Of a stretch of DNA of 39,374 bases, positions 1-28,217 are shown piece by piece; the stretch's first letter is position 1; every line of letters starts with the position of its first letter. The DNA comes from a virus (Duplodnaviria > Heunggongvirae > Uroviricota > Caudoviricetes): IMG/VR virus record IMGVR_UViG_2913147268_000006, positions 1 to 39,374 of that record. One strand, given 5' to 3'. The position numbers were made by a program, and so were the translations under genes. The notes under the pieces are model-generated. The model searched no databases. It was given only the letters and a program-made list of their open reading frames with translations, and was not told the DNA's origin.

Positions 1-2376
1 TCACTGGCCAGACAGCGATGCCAGCATGAAATAATGCAGCTCATCATTCCTTACAGACATTATTTCACCAGCCTCCCTGACCAGCTTGCGCTCTCCGGTA
101 TCGTATTCTTCCATTGTAAGGAGTCCGTCAGGACCAAGCTCCATACGAGTCCCGTAAACCACTTCATATTCCGCCGGATATTCATCACGACACAAAATAC
201 CGTAATCAAAAGCGTCCAGCCCTTCCTCAGAGAAGACCTTCTGTACGTCCTGAGCAATCACTCCTACATGCCATCTGGCTGCGTTCCCTTTGCTGGACAC
301 TGCATCTCTGAAACGGAACCGACAGATATACCCGAGCAGCTTTCTGGCAACCCTTTTTTCTGCATCCGACAGAATTGTTTCGTCCTGTTTATGAGTCCGG
401 TCTGATGTACTGATACTTCCCGTAGCTGAATAAACCTGTGCGGGTCGCCATGAGGCATAACCGATCGAATACGTATTATCTGTATAAGGGCGGAGATTTC
501 CTGATGAATCTATGCGCCATCTCTTTTCTCCTCCTGTGGCATTTGCATCCTGATTCGTTGCAAAATCAATCACTGTCGCTGACCTGAACACAGATGAACC
601 ACCGCCAATTACCAGCGTGTTATTCCCCTCTGATGCCTGTTGGTCAACTACCAGTATTTTATCCTGATTTTTACCTGAACCACTTTTCGAGGCAGCGATA
701 ATACGATTAAACTGATCCTCACCATCGCTCTTTTGTGCGATGGTGATAACATTGGACCAGATTGCCTCTCTTTGTCGCTGAAAACCATATTCTCCGCTGT
801 CTGTAGTGACAGCTTTATATTTTATTCCACCTTCAGCTGACTCCTGCGTTATATAGAATGTCTGGTTATTAGCATTCTTGATGAACACATAATTGTCAGC
901 AGGAATGTCATTTCCACTCAGATCTTTAATCGGTGTCGTGGTTGTATGCAGACAAAACCATTTCTGACTCACAGAACGCATATATGCCAGAATTTCAGAC
1001 AGGGATGTGAATACCGTCCCCAACACCGGGTTTACCAACCCCTGGGCACTACGGGGAAATGTTCCAATACTGGCATGAGACACATCAAACCCCGTGTACA
1101 ACCAGGCTGCCTGACGAAAATCAATAGCATCTCTGCCAGTACTGAACTCTTTCATCAGAACAATTCCTTTCTGATAAGCCTGTGGTAACCCACGCTCCAG
1201 AAAGATATAAAGCGAATATATACTGCCGCCGTCGTCAGAAATACAAATTCCTTCGTTCTCAATGCGCGAAGGTGTAAAACCCTGCCTGGTAAGCACATCT
1301 ATCATTTTTTGGGGATGAAGAATGGATTCCTGCTGCTTTACTCCATCCGGAGAAAAGACCTTAACCCCCTGAAACTGGTTAAATCCGGCTGATGCCCCGG
1401 TATTAAAATAGCCACCATAAGAACAGGCAATATAATCGTCTCCCACAGCAATTCCCTGACGTTTTGTGAAGCGTCTTGCATAGCTGTCTGTGCTTTCCGT
1501 GATATATCCGGAATCATGCAACGGTAATGTGAATGTCCCTGTCCGACGAAACTGAAAATCATACACCGCAAATACTGTGCGGGTGATCAGGCCTCCCACT
1601 TCCGGCGCTGACTGTTCAACCACCCAGCGGTTTTTACGATAGCTGAACTGGTTGTAAACACCGACATCATGTTCATCAATTAACGGCAATACTGAACCAG
1701 AAATTGCCCCATCAAGCGAAAACTGTTTCAGTAATCCATTTTCTCCTGACATGAACAAACGTAATCCACCGTAATCCGTTGTCACCACAAGGCCTTCGCT
1801 GACAACGCCACGACCTCCATTATCGACATAATAATATCCCTCATATTCGCCGGATGTTGTGTACTGAACTATAACGTTCCGTGTCTGCTTTGGCTCAACG
1901 GTATAACTCAGATAGATTTTTTCTCCTGTCACCACAAATCCCTGTGGATACATATATTCCGCACCAGACTGAGCAGCCAGCACCGTATCGTAGTCTGGGA
2001 ATAATAACGGCAATTCCATTAAGACACTACGGGAATGGTTAGTGTACAGATTGTTCAATGAACCAGCTTTTACATCCTGTAACCCCAGATTTTCAAGAGC
2101 GCGTTCTACCGTGCCATCCGATTTGATATCGCCAAACGGATTTTTGCGGCTTAACAGCAGCGCACGAAGCGCGGTAAGCAGCTGGTCGTGCCGCGCCTTC
2201 TCCAGACTGGCACCGGAGGCCTCCACCACGCTGCAAAGTTCTTCCTGCAACATGTCAAAGTAGTCATCATCCAGATCGGTGGCAGGCGTGCCGGTCTGGG
2301 GGTTACCACGGGTAAAACCGTTCTTACCCGCGCCGAACTTATCCTTCTGCGCGGTTTTCGTGTCTATACGATGCAT
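1..2376 (-). CDS. Tail fiber / tailspike protein with C-terminal intramolecular chaperone (peptidase S74-like) domain
   Basis: 791 aa; C-terminal segment with SDRTHK and HVGVIAQDV motifs typical of self-cleaving chaperone domains; sits at the distal end of the tail module. Confidence 0.65.
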
Positions 2377-2379
2377 GGA

Positions 2380-2964
2380 TTACTCCGGATATTTGAAAAT
2401 TACGTAGGTATGCGAAGGGCAGAGTTTGTTAAGCACGCACTCGACAACGGTATCGCCCCAGATACGCAGTGCGGAATCACAGGGATCGCCACATGTCATC
2501 CAGGTGGTGTTGGTGGCGGCTGGCATGTTGACCTGCCAGTAATACCGCCATTCCGTCGCATTCACTGCGTCAGTACAGGCCGATGAGCAGGTGAACGTGC
2601 TTTTGTCGTATCGCGTGATGGTGGCGTCTGGTCTGCCCAGGGCAGCAAGCTGTGCAAGGTAAAAATCCTCATTGATGCCGCCCGCCAGATTAACCTTCGC
2701 ATCCAGCCGTTGCTGACGCTGGCGAAGGGTCTGCGTTCCCGCCGGAATACATTCATCCGGCAGGCCGCACAGACGCTCCCAGCGGTTTATCAGTTCAGTG
2801 GTGGTGCGCGGATCCAGCTCCCGCATCAGGGCATCCGCACGCTGATGAACGCGGGTTAATGACGGTGCCGCACCGGCAATCGCTGGATCGCTGGATGACC
2901 ACGCCGGACCGGGGGGCAACAGTGCCGACAACAGACGGATGTAATCATCGTTTGTCACGTCCAT
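2380..2964 (-). CDS. Mu gp48-like tail protein (DUF2313 / YmfQ-like)
   Basis: 194 aa; family resemblance and position between baseplate J and tail fiber. Confidence 0.65.
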
Positions 2965-4013
2965 GAAATCGTCCCCAGTACCGCCAGTTCATTTTTTGCA
3001 ATGGAGATATTGTCTGCCGGTGCAAGCAACTGATGGCTGTATTCCCCGTTCGCACCGGAAATCGCTTCACTGATACGCGACACCTTCAGTTCTCCCTGCG
3101 GATAACCATCACGCAGCAGGAACGAACGCAACTCGGCGGTGATGGCAGCCCGTATTTCCGGTGTGTCCGGCGTCACGCGGATATGAAAATCCACTTTATG
3201 CGCCACCGGCCTGAATACATATAAATCAGAGCCTGCCACCGGGGCCAGTGGCCCGATATGTTGTCTTGCCGCCGTTTCCGTTGATTCTTCCGGAATGGGA
3301 TTAATCAGGTCACTGCTGGCAATCATCACACCGACAGTTCCCGTTCCCATCCAGTGACGGTATGTCCATGCGCGGGTAATGCCGGGCACTTCTTTAGCCC
3401 AGACGACATAGTCCCCGTCAGCCCCGCCCTGCGGCGTCCAGTAATACCGCTCAATGACGCGGGCGCGCCACGTTTCCAGATCTTCAGTATCGAATCCGCC
3501 AGTCAGGGTATCTGCAACACCGGAAGACGGCAGACCATTCACCGGCGTGACCAGGATTAATGCCGTACCGTCGTCAGCGTTACCGACCGCGCCTGTAGTT
3601 GAGCAAGTGATCGGCGCACGCAGGACACCACCGGAGCTGGTTGCATCGGCAGTTGCCGTGTACTGAACCAGGTCATCGCGCTGAATCACGCTCCCGGCAG
3701 TCACCTTCAGGCCATCGCTGACACCTTCCCAGCGCATATACCCGCTGGCAGCCGTGGCCCCCTTGCGCGGACACCGTTTCATCGCAGCATGTCGTGCCAG
3801 CCAGGACTCATCGCACAGGTCAGGCAGCATATTCATTGCCAGATAATCGATGTACCCATAAACCGTATGCAGCGCCGCCGCATACACCTTTGCCCGCACG
3901 TCTTCATCCATGCGCCGGAGCGTGTCGCTGACGTCCAGCCTGGCGAATAAATCGTTACGGAGCATACTGATATTTTCTGCCAGCGTCGGGCGCTGAAATT
4001 CACTGTCCGCCAT
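2955..4013 (-). CDS. Baseplate J-like protein (Mu gp47-like)
   Basis: 352 aa; position in conserved Mu-type baseplate gene order. Confidence 0.75.
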
Positions 4014-4428
4014 GCGTTATCGCACTCCACAGATCATCAAAAGAAATCATTACCGGTCCGTCACGACGCCAGAGAGTGATACTGTTACCCAGTTCATTAA
4101 TCCCGGTGCGGCGGATATCCAGATCAATACGGGACACCACGCCGTCATCAATCATCCATTGCAGGCATTCGCGGATATACCCCCTTACCGTCTGCACCAG
4201 CTGATTGGTCAGTTTGCTGCGCTGAAGCAGCCACAGCCGGGAGCCGTAACGGTCATTCTGTACCGCAGGCCAGGTATCCCCCCACCATCCCATCGGGACG
4301 TCGGCGTTGTCATCAGGCTCCGCCCGCCGCCAGGTAAACAGGGAAATCACCACGGCGCGGGTCAGCGGATCCAGCGGTGCGCTGGCGCAGGTGCGTTTAC
4401 CGTTCACCGTCAGCCACAGTTCCATCAT
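4000..4428 (-). CDS. Mu gp46-like baseplate protein
   Basis: 142 aa; overlapping stop/start with neighbours in baseplate operon. Confidence 0.65.
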   Translation of the reverse strand: MMELWLTVNGKRTCASAPLDPLTRAVVISLFTWRRAEPDDNADVPMGWWGDTWPAVQNDRYGSRLWLLQRSKLTNQLVQTVRGYIRECLQWMIDDGVVSRIDLDIRRTGINELGNSITLWRRDGPVMISFDDLWSAITHGGQ

Positions 4429-8033: not shown

Positions 8034-9933
8034 ATCGCCTGAATGGAGAATACCCCACATCGTGCGTGATTTTCATCAGGGGATCGGCTTTGCCCGGTAC
8101 ATCAATTATCTTCATGCCTGGCGGAGCATTCTCGAACGTGACTTTCAGTTCGCTGTGCTGTGTCATGGAAGAAGATGGATTCAACAGCGGAACATTGGGT
8201 TTGTACTGACTCAGGCTGGCCTGATACTGCTCGTACTCTTTACGATCAAAAAAAGGCGTCCAGTCTGAAGCCAGAAACAGCCCTTTATTATCCAGCCAGT
8301 TAACTGTATCTTCAGGAACAACACTTTCCAGAGTATCTTTAACCGGCTCATACATCAGGGTTCCCAGAAAACCATATACCCCGGCCTTCCCGATAAAGCC
8401 GCGGCCTTTCCCCATCAATCCCGTTTCTGCCGACACCTTCCCCAGCGTACGCATCTCTCTGGTCACTGCGGTAATGGATTTGGTAACGTCAGCAACCCAT
8501 TTGGTTGTCATAAACAGGGCGATCGCTTTCAGAACAGTTTCCCATCCCCCCATCGCCTGCGCCGTTTCATCCACCACGCGCCAGACTTTTTTTATGACAG
8601 GACCTACGGTTTCCCAGTTATCAATAATGAGGTAAGCGGCACCGACCAGAAGAGCAATCAGACCCTTAGCAGGCGTCATATTCATCACACCGCCGAGAAC
8701 TTTCATGATTCTGGACAAAGAGCCTGCAGCGGCCCCCACTGTCAGTAAAGCCAGACCGATTTTAGCAATGGTCTTAACGAGCTCCGGGTTTTCACGGACA
8801 AACGTTCTCACTTCCTCAAGGAGCGGTTTTACCGCTTCAAGACCATCATTAACCTCAGGAAGAAACGTTTCCCCCAGAGTGGAAGAAATGGCATCAAGTT
8901 GATTTTGCAGAAGTAAAAGCTGGTTTTCCGTCGTCGCTGCCCTCGAAGCATATTCCTTCTGCATCGAACTGCCATACTGCTGGGAATCCGCAACCCGCCT
9001 GAAGTTGGTACGCAACAAATCAAGGTTAGTCAGCAGAGGTGCTATCGCGCCCAGAGACTCTTTCCCGAACAGGGCATTCAGCACAGCTGCCTGTTTTTCT
9101 TTAGGCACTTTAGCCATCGCATCCAGTACAGACAGCATGGTTCCCCGGGCATCTTTCTGCATATCAGCAGCTAATTTCTTCGGATTGATCCGCAGAAAAC
9201 GTAATGCCTGTTTCTGCGATTTTGTCGCTGAATTTCCCGCGGTCAGGGAAAGCATGAAGTTCTTGATCCCTGTGGCGGCAATTTCTGACTCCACGCCCAT
9301 CCCGGCAATGGTTGCCCCCATTGCCGCGATTTCGCCGGAAGCCACACCTGCAACACCACCTAAAGGACCAATACGCGTAACAATATCGGAGATTTTCTTC
9401 GCATTCGCCGGGCCGGTATTACCAAGGTAGTTGATTTTGTCAGCCAGCCCAGCCACTTCATCCTGCGTCATATTAAACGCAGTACGCCACTGGGCCATCA
9501 TCTGCCCGGACTCTTCAGCCGTGGTATCAAAGGCCACGCCCATCTTCACCGCATCAGTGGCAAACTGCATCAGTTCATCACGTGCAATCCCGGCCTGACC
9601 GCCAGCCGCCACAATTTCCGCGATCCCGTCTGCAGACATGGGAAGCTCAGTAGACAAAGCGCGTACCTGCTCCGTCATGGCCTTAAACGCATCCGGCGTA
9701 TCCAGACCGTCCACCACTTTGCGGACATCAGCCATCTTCGATTCAAGGGTGATGGCTGATTTTACAGGGAGTGCCAGTGCCCCCATTATTGCAGTACCCG
9801 CCCCGGCAGCGCCCAGAGCAAGGCTGGAGACTTCTTTCTGAAACCCCTTAAGCTGACGCTGCATACCTTTAAGCGGGCCGGACAGCCTGTCAACGGCGGT
9901 GATGATGGCTTTCAGCTGAAAATTATCAGCCAT
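8032..9933 (-). CDS. Tail tape measure protein
   Basis: 633 aa, Ala/Gly-rich with predicted hydrophobic segments; between tail chaperone and baseplate genes. Confidence 0.8.
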   Translation of the reverse strand: MADNFQLKAIITAVDRLSGPLKGMQRQLKGFQKEVSSLALGAAGAGTAIMGALALPVKSAITLESKMADVRKVVDGLDTPDAFKAMTEQVRALSTELPMSADGIAEIVAAGGQAGIARDELMQFATDAVKMGVAFDTTAEESGQMMAQWRTAFNMTQDEVAGLADKINYLGNTGPANAKKISDIVTRIGPLGGVAGVASGEIAAMGATIAGMGVESEIAATGIKNFMLSLTAGNSATKSQKQALRFLRINPKKLAADMQKDARGTMLSVLDAMAKVPKEKQAAVLNALFGKESLGAIAPLLTNLDLLRTNFRRVADSQQYGSSMQKEYASRAATTENQLLLLQNQLDAISSTLGETFLPEVNDGLEAVKPLLEEVRTFVRENPELVKTIAKIGLALLTVGAAAGSLSRIMKVLGGVMNMTPAKGLIALLVGAAYLIIDNWETVGPVIKKVWRVVDETAQAMGGWETVLKAIALFMTTKWVADVTKSITAVTREMRTLGKVSAETGLMGKGRGFIGKAGVYGFLGTLMYEPVKDTLESVVPEDTVNWLDNKGLFLASDWTPFFDRKEYEQYQASLSQYKPNVPLLNPSSSMTQHSELKVTFENAPPGMKIIDVPGKADPLMKITHDVGYSPFRR

Positions 9934-10017
9934 GCTTCATCTCCTCATTTATACGGACGGCCTCTGCCTCCAGATCAGCAAAGTGGGAAATAGCCGTCCT
10001 GCGAAGTTCAAGGGGGT

Positions 10018-10341
10018 TTAATTTCCAGAACCACGCGACATTGTAGAATCGCTTCCGGAGGTCTCTTCCGTCTCCAAGCCGGTAAAAAAACGCATTACAA
10101 TCATGCCTGCCTTGAAAATATCCAGCTTCGTCATCTGCGCTGCAGACGAGCGCGGGATCCCGGCCAGAAGCGGGATATATTTCAGCGCCACCTGACTGTC
10201 CATTTTCATACCACCATCAGGCGAAACAGAGAAAGGGAACCCCAGCGCCTCAATCTCGTCATACGTAGGCTCACGTATTTCCAGCACATGCAGTGTTTCT
10301 TTGTGGGCGATGATCGGTTTTTTAAGTACAAGCTCAATCAC
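10018..10341 (-). CDS. Tail assembly chaperone-like protein (Mu gp41 position)
   Basis: 107 aa; position between tail tube and tape measure. Confidence 0.5.
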   Translation of the reverse strand: MIELVLKKPIIAHKETLHVLEIREPTYDEIEALGFPFSVSPDGGMKMDSQVALKYIPLLAGIPRSSAAQMTKLDIFKAGMIVMRFFTGLETEETSGSDSTMSRGSGN

Positions 10342-10694
10342 TGGTAATCCCCTTCTTCACCGTGGAACTCAAGATCAACCGTGCCTTCTTCGGCATTATG
10401 GTTCGCTTCACCGTGCAGCCAGGCAGACGACAATACATAGACCTGACCGTTCGCCAGCTCGGCAGTGATGGTCATCTCATCAGACGAGGTGATTTTGCTC
10501 ACCGGAAAATTCTTCGGCACCTTGAAGGTCCCTTTGACATAAGGTGCACGGTGAGTTTCCTTGCGGTCCACTGAACCGTCCAGGCCGATGATGTCATCAT
10601 TTACCGTCCTGTTCATGGGCACCTCAATGCCGCCGGTCAGCGATAGCTGCTGACCGTCAATTTTGAAATAACAGGTTCCCCCGATACGGGCCAT
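10338..10694 (-). CDS. Tail tube protein
   Basis: 118 aa; immediately downstream of sheath gene. Confidence 0.7.
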   Translation of the reverse strand: MARIGGTCYFKIDGQQLSLTGGIEVPMNRTVNDDIIGLDGSVDRKETHRAPYVKGTFKVPKNFPVSKITSSDEMTITAELANGQVYVLSSAWLHGEANHNAEEGTVDLEFHGEEGDYQ

Positions 10695-22258: not shown

Positions 22259-23650
22259 TCACTTAATAGGATTTGGTTTTATGTCGTCAAGCCAGTCGTT
22301 ATCACCTCTTAGCTTGGCTACTCGTCCTTCAACATTAGTTAACGGTTTATAAGCAGAGTATTTGCCTATAGCCCTAGCAGAATGCTCTCCAGCAACACGA
22401 TAATTTTGGAAGTCCAACTCAAGTCCATGCTGCTCCGCTCTCATTCGAATATAACCACGAAGCATGTTTTCTCTAAATCGAAACCAAGATGGACGATTCC
22501 CTAAAGCAGGGATGATGATGCATCCAAATGTCGGTTTCTTCAATGCATTGAACTTTCGCTCAAACGTGGATTTATCTAAAGGTGTTACATCAAGCGATTT
22601 GCAAATTTTAACGTACGATTCTGATATATGAGTCTTATGTCTGGTCAAATCAGCCATATCGGACATAGCCCAAAGAATATGCTTATATGACTCATCACGT
22701 CCCTCTGTTGCATCCGTGTAACTTTGCCTTAAAGTTTCCGAGACTGAATCAATTGCATCATTTAACCCTTTAATGAAAAGGTTGTAATCAACAGAGCTGT
22801 ATTCACGTATTGAGCTTTGACATGTTAAAAGGATTTTTTCACAAATAAGATGAATGTAGTTCGGGAACCCGTCACTAAGACCCGCAATTTTATAGCGGAC
22901 AGAATCATCGACAGTCAGGCCAAACTCATCGAAAGCATTATCAATTATTTGAAAACGACCATTCCATGGTAAACTATCGAGATGTACCTGATGTATTTGT
23001 CGCTCACTTGATTTATGCCCTCCGATTAAAGTAACGAGAGAATCACCAATCCCCGTAAAAATTAATTTTACTTCACACGCCTGATCACCAAGTTGTTTAA
23101 TGAGTGATCCAAACTTTTGTCGTTCTTCATCAGAGTCAATTTGGTCAAACTCATCGATAACTATATAAGGAATCTTTGAGTGAACTTTAGTTAAAAATTG
23201 CAACGCCCGAACGGCTGCAGAAACTGAGTCAATTTTCAGTTCTGGATAATTATATTTTTGATTTTGACCAGCATTGATACCACCAATTCCAGCCACATTT
23301 AAGCCAAAGCTCCATCCCTGTGTATCGATTTTCTTATCCTGAGGTGTGCCTCGCAAAATAATGTCATTCATGACACTTGAAAAAGTGGATTCTTTCTCGC
23401 AGCCAACCAAAATAGGTTCAGCATCTTCCTGCAGCTTAAAAGCAACAGTTTGCGCTAAGGATGTCTTTCCTACTCCGCGATCACCATAAATGAAAGCATG
23501 CCGACCTGTAGCATAAAGCGCCAATTCGAGATCGGTTACATGTTTTTCACGTCCAAATAACAGTTCCATAGAAACAACTGGACCCGTTGGTCGCAAAACT
23601 TTATGCAGTTTATGCATAAAGTCTCGCAAAGAAAGACCTCCACAGAGCAT
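22259..23650 (-). CDS. P-loop ATPase (AAA-like) with uncharacterised C-terminal domain; cargo gene between Q and holin
   Basis: 463 aa; Walker A GDRGVGKTS, Walker B YIVIDEFD; AGGAGA SD 8-9 nt before ATG; AT-rich. Confidence 0.7.
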   Translation of the reverse strand: MLCGGLSLRDFMHKLHKVLRPTGPVVSMELLFGREKHVTDLELALYATGRHAFIYGDRGVGKTSLAQTVAFKLQEDAEPILVGCEKESTFSSVMNDIILRGTPQDKKIDTQGWSFGLNVAGIGGINAGQNQKYNYPELKIDSVSAAVRALQFLTKVHSKIPYIVIDEFDQIDSDEERQKFGSLIKQLGDQACEVKLIFTGIGDSLVTLIGGHKSSERQIHQVHLDSLPWNGRFQIIDNAFDEFGLTVDDSVRYKIAGLSDGFPNYIHLICEKILLTCQSSIREYSSVDYNLFIKGLNDAIDSVSETLRQSYTDATEGRDESYKHILWAMSDMADLTRHKTHISESYVKICKSLDVTPLDKSTFERKFNALKKPTFGCIIIPALGNRPSWFRFRENMLRGYIRMRAEQHGLELDFQNYRVAGEHSARAIGKYSAYKPLTNVEGRVAKLRGDNDWLDDIKPNPIK

Positions 23651-23659
23651 TTTTATTCT

Positions 23660-23700
23660 CCTGCATTTTTTTCGAAAACTATAACATCATTCTTTTTGGC
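23660..23700 (-). promoter_or_regulatory. Putative promoter (extended -10 TGtTATAGT) upstream of ATPase; could equally be the late promoter pR'
   Basis: Extended -10 near 23678-23692 on minus strand; -35-like TTGCCA is spaced too closely (13 nt) to count. Confidence 0.3.
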
Positions 23701-23717
23701 AAGCCTTTCCTAAACGC

Positions 23718-23745
23718 AAAAACCCGCACAATGGCGGGTTCTTAC
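23718..23745 (-). terminator. Intrinsic terminator downstream of Q
   Basis: Minus-strand hairpin aacccgc-cattgt-gcgggtt followed by UUUGCGUUU. Confidence 0.5.
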
Positions 23746-23789
23746 TATTATGTTGCTCAGTTCGCTTTTCGTCCCGAGCTTATCACAAT

Positions 23790-24368
23790 TCAAGCACTTT
23801 CTTGCTCACTTTGCAATTTAAATCTGTCGCTATTTGTGCCAAACGCATCACATAGTGGAGCGTACAGGAGCGATTCGGCCAAACTTATCCATGTGTCAAC
23901 TCGGCGGCGACAGGTAATGAGCGCCCAGTCAGGATGTTTAATATGAAGCTCATTGGCCATTTGCAACTTGCTCTTACGCAGACAATACCGGCCAACAATC
24001 ACACCGTATAGAGAACGGTAATCATTATTCATCAGCACCGAGGCGATCACACCGTCAATCTTCAGGCCTTCATCGTCCGAGCAAAACGCCAGACTACTTT
24101 TGTTTTTACTGTTGAGTATTTCGCGCAAATAAGCTTCGAGCTCTGGTTTCGTAATGCCTGACTTTTTCATACGGCGCAGCGCATCGTTGATTGCAGTTTT
24201 GGTAATTTTGCTGGATACAAGCAGTTGGTTAAACATGTTACCGCTAGTCCCTCCACTGATATAAGACCAACGCCCCCACATGCGGAGCTTCCCCTGAACC
24301 CAGATACTTTCCAGAGTACGAAGACGAACCATTTCACCCGTTTTGCCAATTTCAGAAGGATTAATCAT
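23790..24368 (-). CDS. Late-gene antitermination protein Q-like
   Basis: 192 aa; pattern resembles Q family of phage 82 / QuuD type; located directly upstream of lysis region and downstream of DUF968 gene. Confidence 0.6.
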   Translation of the reverse strand: MINPSEIGKTGEMVRLRTLESIWVQGKLRMWGRWSYISGGTSGNMFNQLLVSSKITKTAINDALRRMKKSGITKPELEAYLREILNSKNKSSLAFCSDDEGLKIDGVIASVLMNNDYRSLYGVIVGRYCLRKSKLQMANELHIKHPDWALITCRRRVDTWISLAESLLYAPLCDAFGTNSDRFKLQSEQESA

Positions 24369-26093: not shown

Positions 26094-26121
26094 TAAAAAC
26101 AAAAACCCGCCGAAGCGGGTT
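26094..26121 (-). terminator. Intrinsic terminator at 3' end of hok mRNA
   Basis: Minus-strand hairpin acccgcttcggcgggt followed by UUUUUGUUUUU. Confidence 0.55.
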
Positions 26122-26189
26122 AAGTGCGGGTGCGTTGAGGATGCCTGCCACATCAGAGGTGGCGAGGGATTTATCCCTCGCCGGGTCTC

Positions 26190-26345
26190 TTACTCCTCAG
26201 GTTCGTAAGCTGTGAAGACAGCGACCTCCGTCTGGCCGGTTCGGATTCGTACCTCGCAGAGGTCTTTCCTCGTTACCAGTGCCGTCACTATGACGGTTAA
26301 ACAGATGACGATCAGGGCGATTAACATCGCCTTTTGCTGCTTCAT
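26190..26345 (-). CDS. hokD: Hok family type I toxin (HokD/RelF-like)
   Basis: Hand translation gives MKQQKAMLIALIVICLTVIVTALVTRKDLCEVRIRTGQTEVAVFTAYEPEE (51 aa), which I recognise as HokD; below track threshold. Confidence 0.85.
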   Translation of the reverse strand: MKQQKAMLIALIVICLTVIVTALVTRKDLCEVRIRTGQTEVAVFTAYEPEE

Positions 26346-26530
26346 AGCCTGCTTCTCCTTGACCTTTCGGTCCGTAAGAGGCTAATCTCTATGTGTCGCA
26401 TAGATATGGCCTCAGATTAATGTTAAGCGTCTTGCAGGACGCGTAATGTTAACTGGGGCTTTTCTCTATCTGCCTTTTGGTGTTCATGCCTGAGACAGAT
26501 AGCCTCAAGCACCCGCAGTTATTCTACTTA
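26346..26530. promoter_or_regulatory. hok mRNA leader with expected antisense Sok region and short mok-like frame
   Basis: Leader shows the conserved GCUUGAGGCU...CUCA and GAUAGCCUCUUAC...CAAGGAGAAG elements of hok mRNAs; the only upstream ATG-initiated frame stops after about 12 codons. Confidence 0.4.
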
Positions 26531-26603: not shown

Positions 26604-26822
26604 TTACCGCCAGTATTCAATGCACATGACCGCCATGAACACCCCTAAAAAAAGGGCATTTATATGTCCAAACATTAATATCAAAACATCAATTTTTTCC
26701 ATATACCTTGCTGTGAAGATGATGGGCATACATGATGCGAACAACCAGAACGCAACAAACAAAAACTGCAATGCGTTTTTCATTATTCCCCCTACAATCA
26801 ATGTGCAATAACATTTAAACAC
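26604..26822 (-). CDS. Small hydrophobic membrane protein
   Basis: 72 aa, two predicted TM segments; AT-rich. Confidence 0.4.
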   Translation of the reverse strand: MFKCYCTLIVGGIMKNALQFLFVAFWLFASCMPIIFTARYMEKIDVLILMFGHINALFLGVFMAVMCIEYWR

Positions 26823-26903: not shown

Positions 26904-27419
26904 TCATCGTAAAACATCCTCCACGCTTATCAGTCCATTTCGTTTCAGGTAATCCATCGCCTTCTCCGGTAATTTGCAGTCCGGCTGAGCTTTTTTCAGT
27001 TGACTGACCAGTCGTTTAACCCACATTGTTAATTCGCTAACCTGATTGCCGGATGCTGGTGGATTGTCGGCTTTACCCAGAATGGCAGCGCAGCAGGCCT
27101 CTCTGAGCACCCAGTCAACAGCATCCTTCCATGCTCCTGTTTCGACTGGCGGATTCTCACGCTTTACCTGTTCATAAAAGCGCACGGCTTTAACCAGTCC
27201 TTCTGATGTCACCGGGACTGGCGGGCCGATGAATAAGGCCTGAATTTCATAGTTCGGCCTGTCGTTACAATCCTCTTTTGTCGGTACATATTTCCAGTCA
27301 CCAGCCCACGGCTTCCCCTGAAAGTCTGTAACGTCTTTTTTCACGTAGCGATATCGCCATGCAACTGGTTTTGCCTGCCCTGCCGTTTCATGCCCTTCCT
27401 GATAATTAATCTCGCTCAT
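26904..27419 (-). CDS. Hypothetical phage protein
   Basis: 171 aa ORF with overlapping start/stop with upstream small gene. Confidence 0.55.
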   Translation of the reverse strand: MSEINYQEGHETAGQAKPVAWRYRYVKKDVTDFQGKPWAGDWKYVPTKEDCNDRPNYEIQALFIGPPVPVTSEGLVKAVRFYEQVKRENPPVETGAWKDAVDWVLREACCAAILGKADNPPASGNQVSELTMWVKRLVSQLKKAQPDCKLPEKAMDYLKRNGLISVEDVLR

Positions 27420-27592
27420 TCATCGCCCCACTCATCACAATATGCTTCGACCGGAGTTTTTCCTGCTTCATAATCATCACGCCATGCTTCAGCATCAGCA
27501 GCACTGCCACCACGTAACTCTGCATAGTCCATTAACAGTTCATGCCATGCTTCAAAACTGACGTTGTATTTAGTTGAACCAAAATCAGCCAT
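27416..27592 (-). CDS. Small acidic protein (58 aa)
   Basis: Hand translation MADFGSTKYNVSFEAWHELLMDYAELRGGSAADAEAWRDDYEAGKTPVEAYCDEWGDE; ATGA overlap with downstream gene. Confidence 0.4.
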   Translation of the reverse strand: MADFGSTKYNVSFEAWHELLMDYAELRGGSAADAEAWRDDYEAGKTPVEAYCDEWGDE

Positions 27593-27767
27593 TTTGCTCT
27601 TCCTCTTCGTCTTTTATTTCGTGATATGAGTAATTGCAGTAGTTAAAGAAAATATCTTTTGCTTCGTCATGTATTTCATCAGGCGTCGCATCATCATCCA
27701 CTTCGAATTCATTCTCGAAATCTCCACCGGCTATTCCCGTTTCAATAATTATTTTAAACTTTCGCAT
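27585..27767 (-). CDS. Small highly acidic protein (60 aa)
   Basis: Track ORF; D/E-rich (EEEEQ C-terminus). Confidence 0.45.
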   Translation of the reverse strand: MRKFKIIIETGIAGGDFENEFEVDDDATPDEIHDEAKDIFFNYCNYSYHEIKDEEEEQNG

Positions 27768-27860
27768 TTAACTACCGCCCTTTCGGGCGGCCTCCTGATG
27801 TTCTGAGGGTGCAGAAATCCCTCCGGTTAAGGATTAAATTTTTAACAGAGCTAAATTTAA

Positions 27861-28217
27861 TTATTCAGTTCTGGATTTTGTCGCCCTGCGTATCCGCGCT
27901 TTCGCGTTACGCTCAATCTGAATTAGCTTTTCTATATTTTTTCGCCTTTCCCGCTCCTCCTGGCGCAAGTGCCTTACATCATCTGCCAGTCTGGTTTCTC
28001 TTTTCGCCACAGAGAGCATCCAGTCAAATGGCTCCACAACTGCACCGCAGATTTTACAGCGGACCTGACGCTCTTTTTCGTCAACCCGGACAGAGGCGTG
28101 ATGACAATATGGTCTTTCCGATGGCTCATAAAGAAAATTAACCTGATTACGAGGGTCATCCTCTTTTACCGGAAATAAAACGATATTGCTTAACTCATCC
28201 TCTGGTTTTATTTCCAT
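27861..28217 (-). CDS. Zinc-ribbon-containing hypothetical protein
   Basis: 118 aa; CHH...CKIC motif and basic C-terminus. Confidence 0.5.
   Translation of the reverse strand: MEIKPEDELSNIVLFPVKEDDPRNQVNFLYEPSERPYCHHASVRVDEKERQVRCKICGAVVEPFDWMLSVAKRETRLADDVRHLRQEERERRKNIEKLIQIERNAKARIRRATKSRTE

Follow-up and report, generated by a model that had tools for sequence, protein, structure and literature searches.

Small phage inhibitors and DNA mimics work by binding and blocking basic, nucleic-acid-binding surfaces of host and defence proteins. The DNA-mimic and anti-restriction proteins T7 Ocr, ArdA, T4 Arn, phi29-type p56, Ugi and T7 Gp5.9 are small and have very low pI values. The closest described systems also include the small alpha/beta inhibitors T7 Gp2, which inhibits RNA polymerase, T4 Dmd, AcrIIC3, AcrIC9 and AcrIE2. 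Many small acidic phage proteins serve other roles. The small ORFs of the lambdoid nin and exo-xis regions (NinD/E/F/H, Orf63) are short, packed, coupled and non-essential, and lie either between the replication genes and Q or in the early-left region; for those of phage lambda, roles in the element's own biology have been proposed. DarTG is an anti-phage system, and NADAR enzymes reverse the ADP-ribosylation of guanine in DNA that is carried out by DarT1.

The window, that is, the whole 39,374-nucleotide stretch of Caudoviricetes DNA analysed here (IMG/VR record IMGVR_UViG_2913147268_000006), encodes two small proteins, orf60 and orf58, which an earlier note had described as a translationally coupled pair of highly acidic early proteins of a kind that frequently proves to be DNA mimics or other anti-defence factors. 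Three aspects are newly recognised: orf60 and orf58 are not a conserved pair, the orf58 family is common to phages, both temperate and virulent, and to hundreds of conjugative plasmids, and no characterised inhibitor is similar to either family.

Gene organization and putative translational coupling

The features of the locus are listed below in the direction of transcription.

27861–28217, minus strand: orf118, zinc-ribbon-like, phrog_1621; the last gene 5' of the orf60 leader
27768–27860, minus strand: intergenic leader of orf60, with AGGAGG at 27791–27796 and a hairpin at 27775–27790
27585–27767, minus strand: orf60, a 60-residue DUF7167 protein with a net charge of -14 (ORF list, Pfam PF23768, phrog_1997)
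27585–27592, minus strand: orf60/orf58 stop/start overlap ATGGCTGA, 8 nt, read from the sequence
27416–27592, minus strand: orf58, a 58-residue phrog_519-family protein without a Pfam match, net charge -11
27416–27419, minus strand: orf58/orf171 stop/start overlap ATGA, read from the sequence
26904–27419, minus strand: orf171, 171 residues, phrog_660, pI 7.6 and not acidic; the downstream, putatively coupled gene

Both ORFs exist with the lengths and the 8-nt overlap first reported, on the minus strand, which the earlier note did not give, and the peptides EIKDEEEEQNG and DDYEAGKTPVEAYCDEWGDE are both found in the translations. The orf60/orf58 junction reads GAGGAAGAGCAAAATGGCTGATTTT on the minus strand. 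Here GAGGAAGAG precedes ATGGCTGA, a Shine-Dalgarno-like GAGGA lies ~9 nt 5' of the orf58 ATG, and the junction has the sequence features by which translationally coupled genes are recognised. Because the orf60 stop codon TGA falls within codons 2–3 of orf58, and the stop codon of orf58 shares nucleotides with the orf171 start codon, we infer that orf60, orf58 and orf171 are expressed through translational coupling. The proposed coupling of orf60 to orf58 thus agrees with the sequence, but the unit comprises three genes rather than two, with orf171 joined through ATGA.

The same ATGGCTGA junction, with the same TGA, occurs on the IncI2 plasmid KX580716 (locus positions 9001–9008), where the upstream gene is an unrelated DUF1187 gene. 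The overlapping stop is therefore built into the 5' end of orf58 and is no evidence of a partnership with orf60. The orf58 cassette may itself supply the coupling signal at each new site of recombination.

The sole good Shine-Dalgarno sequence for orf60 is the AGGAGG of the leader, 23 nt from the ATG. Between the two lies the CCGCCC-GAAA-GGGCGG hairpin, followed by 7 nt to the ATG, and the computed RNA fold of the 108-nt leader contains this hairpin (-28.8 kcal/mol, z -1.9). Folding of the hairpin would reduce the spacing between AGGAGG and ATG to 7 nt, pointing to a ribosome-binding site that is structured or 'split'. The diverged copy in MN652886 carries a C-to-T change in the hairpin that retains a G-U pair. 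No Rfam family matched in the leader or beneath orf60 and orf58.

Prophage context and predicted timing of expression

Positions 15300–37664 of the window match, with 100% identity, a Rac/Qin-like lambdoid prophage that lies beside a tRNA-Ser gene and mtfA in E. coli Ecol_AZ146. The RefSeq annotation gives the minus-strand gene order as a Cro/CI-type regulator, a YdaT-family protein, a DnaT-like replication protein, P, DUF1627, DUF977, DUF4406 and an Ead/Ea22-like protein, followed by orf118, orf60, orf58, orf171, hokD, rem, DUF968, DUF1133 (a Q-like antiterminator) and the lysis and head genes. Existing labels are DUF7167 family protein for orf60 and hypothetical protein for orf58. Scanning with consensus patterns revealed nothing that resembles a promoter or terminator between orf60 and the genes 5' of it. 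Since orf60 and orf58 lie 3' of the replication genes and 5' of the Q-like antiterminator, in the equivalent of the nin region, they would be delayed-early genes. Their description as early proteins is accordingly kept as regards the cro-side (PR-type) operon, but in the delayed-early and not the immediate-early sense.

Several other features of the element were recorded. A complete hok/sok-type module is located at 26190–26514 on the minus strand, ~0.6 kb 3' of orf171, and comprises hokD (51 residues) with a nearby Rfam sok match (26343–26514, 106.7 bits). A weak isrK-like Rfam match, which at 27.4 bits is below the cutoff, covers a terminator-like hairpin at 26100–26181. The low-GC gap between hokD and orf171 (0.36–0.40) contains a very hydrophobic ORF of 72 residues (26604–26822, minus strand) that is unannotated in RefSeq and has no PHROG match; it could be a small membrane protein or a chance ORF. 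In the RefSeq annotation the integrase gene is frameshifted and a second copy of dicB is only partial (locus positions 18743–18826 and 22925–23975); the prophage, otherwise intact-looking, may be unable to excise.

Sequence conservation and acidity

Orf60 matches the Pfam DUF7167 profile (PF23768) over positions 1–60 of 60 with 52.1 bits (cutoff 24.4, E 6.9e-14), and phrog_1997 with an E value of 1e-30. Orf58 has no match in Pfam or NCBIfam and matches phrog_519 (E 2e-22) only over positions 76–137 of 143, the C-terminal half of that profile. Homologous DNA was collected from ~90 loci, and pairwise estimates were pooled; dN/dS is 0.11 over 33 unique orf60 sequences and 0.05 over 24 unique orf58 sequences. 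Orf60 and orf58 are true genes under purifying selection.

Asp and Glu account for 32% of the residues of orf60 and 26% of those of orf58, and the pI of each protein is 4.06. The strong acidity noted earlier is borne out: the two proteins are the most acidic among the 36 annotated prophage proteins checked, and the property is kept throughout both families. Net charges range from -4 to -15 in all 30 diverse orf58-family members and from -7 to -15 in all 14 DUF7167 members, and at least 70% of the residues are Asp or Glu in 8 alignment columns of the orf58 family and 16 of DUF7167. Both proteins thus show the charge properties of DNA-mimic proteins, namely negative charge and low pI that extend family-wide. 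The window copies each depart from their relatives at one acidic position. Codon 19 of orf60 (27711–27713) encodes Asn where nearly all relatives have Asp, and codon 15 of orf58 (27548–27550) encodes Ala where the consensus is Glu.

Linkage of orf60 and orf58

Of 5426 complete E. coli genomes, 2569 contain matching DNA; among deposited phage genomes only 16 do, including that of Stx phage ArgO145. There the orf60–orf58 cassette, with the 8-nt overlap intact, is located in the early-left region by Ead/Ea22 genes, and its other flanking genes differ. Orf60 is placed 5' of orf58, with the same overlap, in 79 of 80 close IMG/VR loci. All of these linked loci are nearly identical to the window (at least ~95% for the orf58 protein, and 96.8% for the ArgO145 DNA), and their linkage therefore reflects recent common descent.

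The linkage vanishes with divergence. None of the 13 loci with diverged DUF7167 genes (61–75% identity) has an orf58 relative, either downstream or elsewhere in the locus. Conversely, Enterobacter prophages have an Ead/Ea22 gene immediately followed by an orf58 homologue (78% identity), without DUF7167, in a nin-type context and also beside xis-int, and a Serratia prophage has an orf58 relative between an unrelated 107-residue gene and a NinX-like gene. On IncI2 plasmids the orf58 relative comes after the DUF1187 gene. One Rac-like prophage retains an intact orf58 next to an orf60 pseudogene, in which the start codon is gone and a stop codon has arisen. The notion of a dedicated pair does not survive this comparison: the association is confined to a recent lineage, and orf60 and orf58 are two unrelated, independently mobile accessory genes. 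The 127-residue protein P0142 was considered as an orf60–orf58 fusion and rejected, as its N-terminus is DUF1187 and not DUF7167.

Distribution of the two families

An exhaustive HMMER search of 1.84 billion cluster representatives identified only 58 orf58-family matches at E<=0.001, nearly all of them stand-alone proteins of 50–65 residues. By tblastn the family is found in 192 phage records, many of them Ackermannviridae (Menlow, Det7, PhiSH19), together with a T5-like phage and a Morganella phage; the Ackermannviridae, Morganella-phage and T5-like homologues match the same part of phrog_519 as the window protein. The relative in phage Menlow is located in a run of small hypothetical genes 3' of the major head gene, on the same strand, and early expression is therefore not universal in the family. 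A scan of genome contigs for distant orf58 loci returned only three loci, one of which is a mis-binned E. coli-like contig. One orf58 homologue bears the depositor label 'DUF5419', which the Pfam search did not bear out.

Beyond phages, orf58-family genes are carried by 554 plasmids, and 516 of these are classed as conjugative by prediction. Among the plasmids are mcr-1 IncI2 plasmids and large MOBH plasmids. The homologue on the mcr-1 IncI2 plasmid KX580716 is part of a co-directional run (locus 8294–10974) that encodes a CaiF/GrlA-family regulator, DUF1187, the orf58 homologue, an SPFH-domain protein and NfeD, and is located between repA and the type IV secretion genes. It lies on the recipient-first side of the mobC/relaxase junction and is co-oriented with the first genes, at a distance of ~16.6 kb and ~27 listed ORFs from that junction and beyond repA, a position that depends on an inferred oriT and an incomplete gene table.

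DUF7167 relatives were found in 113 phage records and on 22 plasmids, including Pseudomonas and Klebsiella plasmids. The family extends tentatively to Phapecoctavirus and Enterococcus Herelleviridae proteins, which are 41–45% identical (tblastn E ~2e-6); the Enterococcus and Phapecoctavirus proteins score 18.9 and 23.2 bits, respectively, against DUF7167, just under the Pfam cutoff. Enterococcus phage PBEF129 (locus 1258–3671) carries its DUF7167 relative directly after an ASCH/DUF3850 gene annotated 'exonuclease', with a NADAR gene annotated 'GTP cyclohydrolase II' 1.7 kb upstream. Some records bear doubtful host names. A contig binned as a Collinsella MAG contains an E. coli prophage module whose orf60 and orf58 homologues differ from those of the window by 2–4 residues, and the records of 'Actinobacillus phage vB_Apl-pPE4' and 'Enterococcus phage Efm 3-10' (PP818812.1 and OR844942.1) carry E. 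coli-phage-like sequence; all three are probably mis-binned or host-mislabelled.

One orf58-type domain is part of a larger protein. The T5-like Escherichia phage EP_H11 encodes a 218-residue protein (locus 3512–4168) whose C-terminal 58 residues form an orf58-type domain, in frame with an N-terminal NADAR domain (Pfam E 7e-27). This fusion constitutes one cluster, with 9 member sequences, among 935 NADAR matches, and is present in 4 of 646 phage records. The orf58-type domain of EP_H11 keeps its internal Met, and the fusion may thus have arisen by loss of the stop codon between two coupled genes.

Predicted structures and homology searches

AlphaFold2, run with shallow alignments, yielded compact models of both proteins with mean pLDDT values of 79–80 (79 for orf60). 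Orf60 is predicted to adopt a beta-beta-alpha-beta arrangement followed by a short acidic C-terminal helix or tail, and orf58 is predicted to form a three-helix bundle (helices 13–26, 35–42 and 47–55). Alignment of 30 diverse orf58-family members shows that W37 is invariant and that F13, W16, Y41, G44 and P47 are nearly so, with the consensus FEEW..L...A...GGsaaD..AWr.DYdaGkTPeeAw.DEW; the predicted bundle has a conserved aromatic core. The family can be described as an acidic predicted three-helix bundle of ~55 residues with the motif W-x3-Y-x2-G-x-T-P, in which the Trp is invariant.

A Foldseek search of the PDB gave no match at E<=0.001 for either model, and orf58 is without any structural neighbour in the fold search; its best E value in the PDB profile search, 0.45, is at chance level. 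Two candidate relatives of orf60 were judged to be chance matches: ribosomal protein L23 (PDB profile E 0.08, over 31 residues only) and the AnkX insertion domain (PDB E 0.02; Pfam E 0.0037, below the cutoff). Pfam and NCBIfam revealed no DNA-binding or enzymatic motif in orf60 or orf58.

PADLOC, at E<=0.1, returned no defence-system match for orf60, orf58, orf171 or the Ead/Ea22-like protein, and a prophage-encoded defence system was accordingly rejected. A type II toxin–antitoxin pair was rejected as well: Pfam, NCBIfam and PADLOC identified neither a toxin nor an antitoxin domain, and orf60 and orf58 assort independently. DUF7167, DUF1187 and the protein accessions are nowhere mentioned in the literature searched, and the orf60 and orf58 sequences are absent from the text supplements of large studies on accessory genes or plasmid anti-defence genes.

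Discussion

An anti-defence or host-inhibitor role is a plausible candidate function of orf60 and orf58. Each protein would act singly, during lytic growth or when a mobile element enters a cell, and would engage a host or defence protein one-to-one, at a basic surface that binds nucleic acid, thereby blocking that protein. The reading is suggested by the position-specific acidity, the compact predicted folds and the spread over very different mobile elements that share hosts; host-interaction and anti-defence genes typically show such a distribution, over phages both temperate and virulent and over conjugative plasmids. As a counterpoint, the surroundings of the IncI2 orf58 homologue, beyond repA and with a regulator and SPFH/NfeD genes, are not a classic anti-defence setting. 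Also weighing against the reading are the failure to find a homology link to any inhibitor or a structural neighbour of orf58, the absence of both sequences from the supplements mentioned above, the place of the Ackermannviridae relative 3' of the head gene, and the other roles of many small acidic phage proteins. That each protein by itself inhibits a host or defence protein that is basic and probably binds nucleic acid is a real possibility, with chances somewhat short of even.

Orf60 and orf58 could instead serve the element's own biology rather than counter-defence, for instance by adjusting replication, recombination, the choice between lysis and lysogeny, or host physiology. Their neighbours are nin-region-type and Ead/Ea22-type genes, presumably with phage-internal functions, the Serratia orf58 relative adjoins a NinX-like gene, and the IncI2 homologue lies 3' of a regulator gene in the interval that separates repA from the transfer genes. 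However, the families span lambdoid and T5-like phages, Ackermannviridae, Herelleviridae, and IncI2 and MOBH plasmids, which have differing lifestyles and replication systems, and the occurrence of the same proteins across them argues for a common host-side target; the lack of DNA-binding and enzymatic motifs in Pfam and NCBIfam also counts against such a role, which is rather unlikely but deserves consideration. A two-component unit (a heterodimer, a chaperone and client, or an inhibitor and regulator), whose overlap would match the amounts of the two proteins, could account for the constant adjacency in the close loci and for the transfer of both genes as one cassette into the early-left operon of ArgO145. 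It is nonetheless improbable, given that the linked loci are of recent descent, that the diverged DUF7167 loci do not adjoin an orf58 relative while orf58 follows other genes, that the ATGGCTGA junction is a property of orf58, seen again where another gene lies upstream, and that the Rac-like prophage keeps orf58 beside a broken orf60. Moreover, both proteins are strongly negative, so that a tight mutual complex is less likely.

The EP_H11 fusion hints at a shared pathway, in which the orf58-type domain, fused or separate, would be an accessory or targeting module of enzymes that reverse DNA ADP-ribosylation by DarT-type toxins. Such a module is highly improbable: the fusion represents a single lineage, the internal Met is kept, the Ackermannviridae with orf58 relatives have no NADAR match in the same records, and no NADAR gene is annotated within the 24.6 kb of the prophage inspected. 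Finally, frameshifted, truncated and nonsense copies are present in the databases, and the window copies each lack a consensus acidic residue (at N19 of orf60 and A15 of orf58), as functionless passengers or decaying remnants of a cryptic prophage might. This last explanation is hardly credible and is largely refuted by the strong purifying selection (dN/dS 0.05–0.11) and the breadth of the families, whose relatives are conserved in virulent phages and plasmids; the presence of matching DNA in 2569 of the 5426 E. coli genomes also speaks against it.

In its strongest form, the inhibitor reading would make the orf58 family a new, broad counter-defence or host-takeover protein directed against a conserved enterobacterial DNA-binding or defence protein, and DUF7167 a second, independent inhibitor family with a wider host range that reaches from Enterobacteria to Enterococcus phages; this is unlikely. 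Matching DNA is found in about half of the complete E. coli genomes, and the orf58 family is carried by hundreds of conjugative resistance plasmids and by virulent phages considered for therapy. If a defence or core DNA-handling protein were inhibited, the finding would matter for the host range of phages and the spread of plasmids, and the protein could be of use as a compact laboratory inhibitor. If neither protein inhibits, they are typical uncharacterised small genes of phage early accessory regions. Both are reasonable targets for an anti-defence screen, which does not make them a surprising finding.

Comparison with characterised systems

Neither family resembles any characterised inhibitor, and sequence and fold searches provided no homology link from orf60 or orf58 to any inhibitor. 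Sequence and fold comparisons with the known anti-restriction families Ocr, ArdA, ArdB/KlcA, Ral and Arn revealed no homology, and the only DNA mimic in the Foldseek lists is p56, with TM scores of 0.38–0.41 and E values of 1.7–4.0. Despite this lack of relationship in sequence or fold, orf60 and orf58 share with the DNA-mimic and anti-restriction proteins their small size and very low pI, the conservation of acidic residues by position, and their presence in phages and on conjugative plasmids, in regions that may be expressed early or enter the recipient early. They occupy the same niche as the small ORFs of the lambdoid nin and exo-xis regions but differ from the Nin families, to which no Pfam match connects them; nor did PDB sequence and fold searches return the lambda Orf63 or an Ea8.5-type structure. 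Orf60 and orf58 belong to a well-known type, that of small acidic accessory proteins encoded in the early regions of phages.
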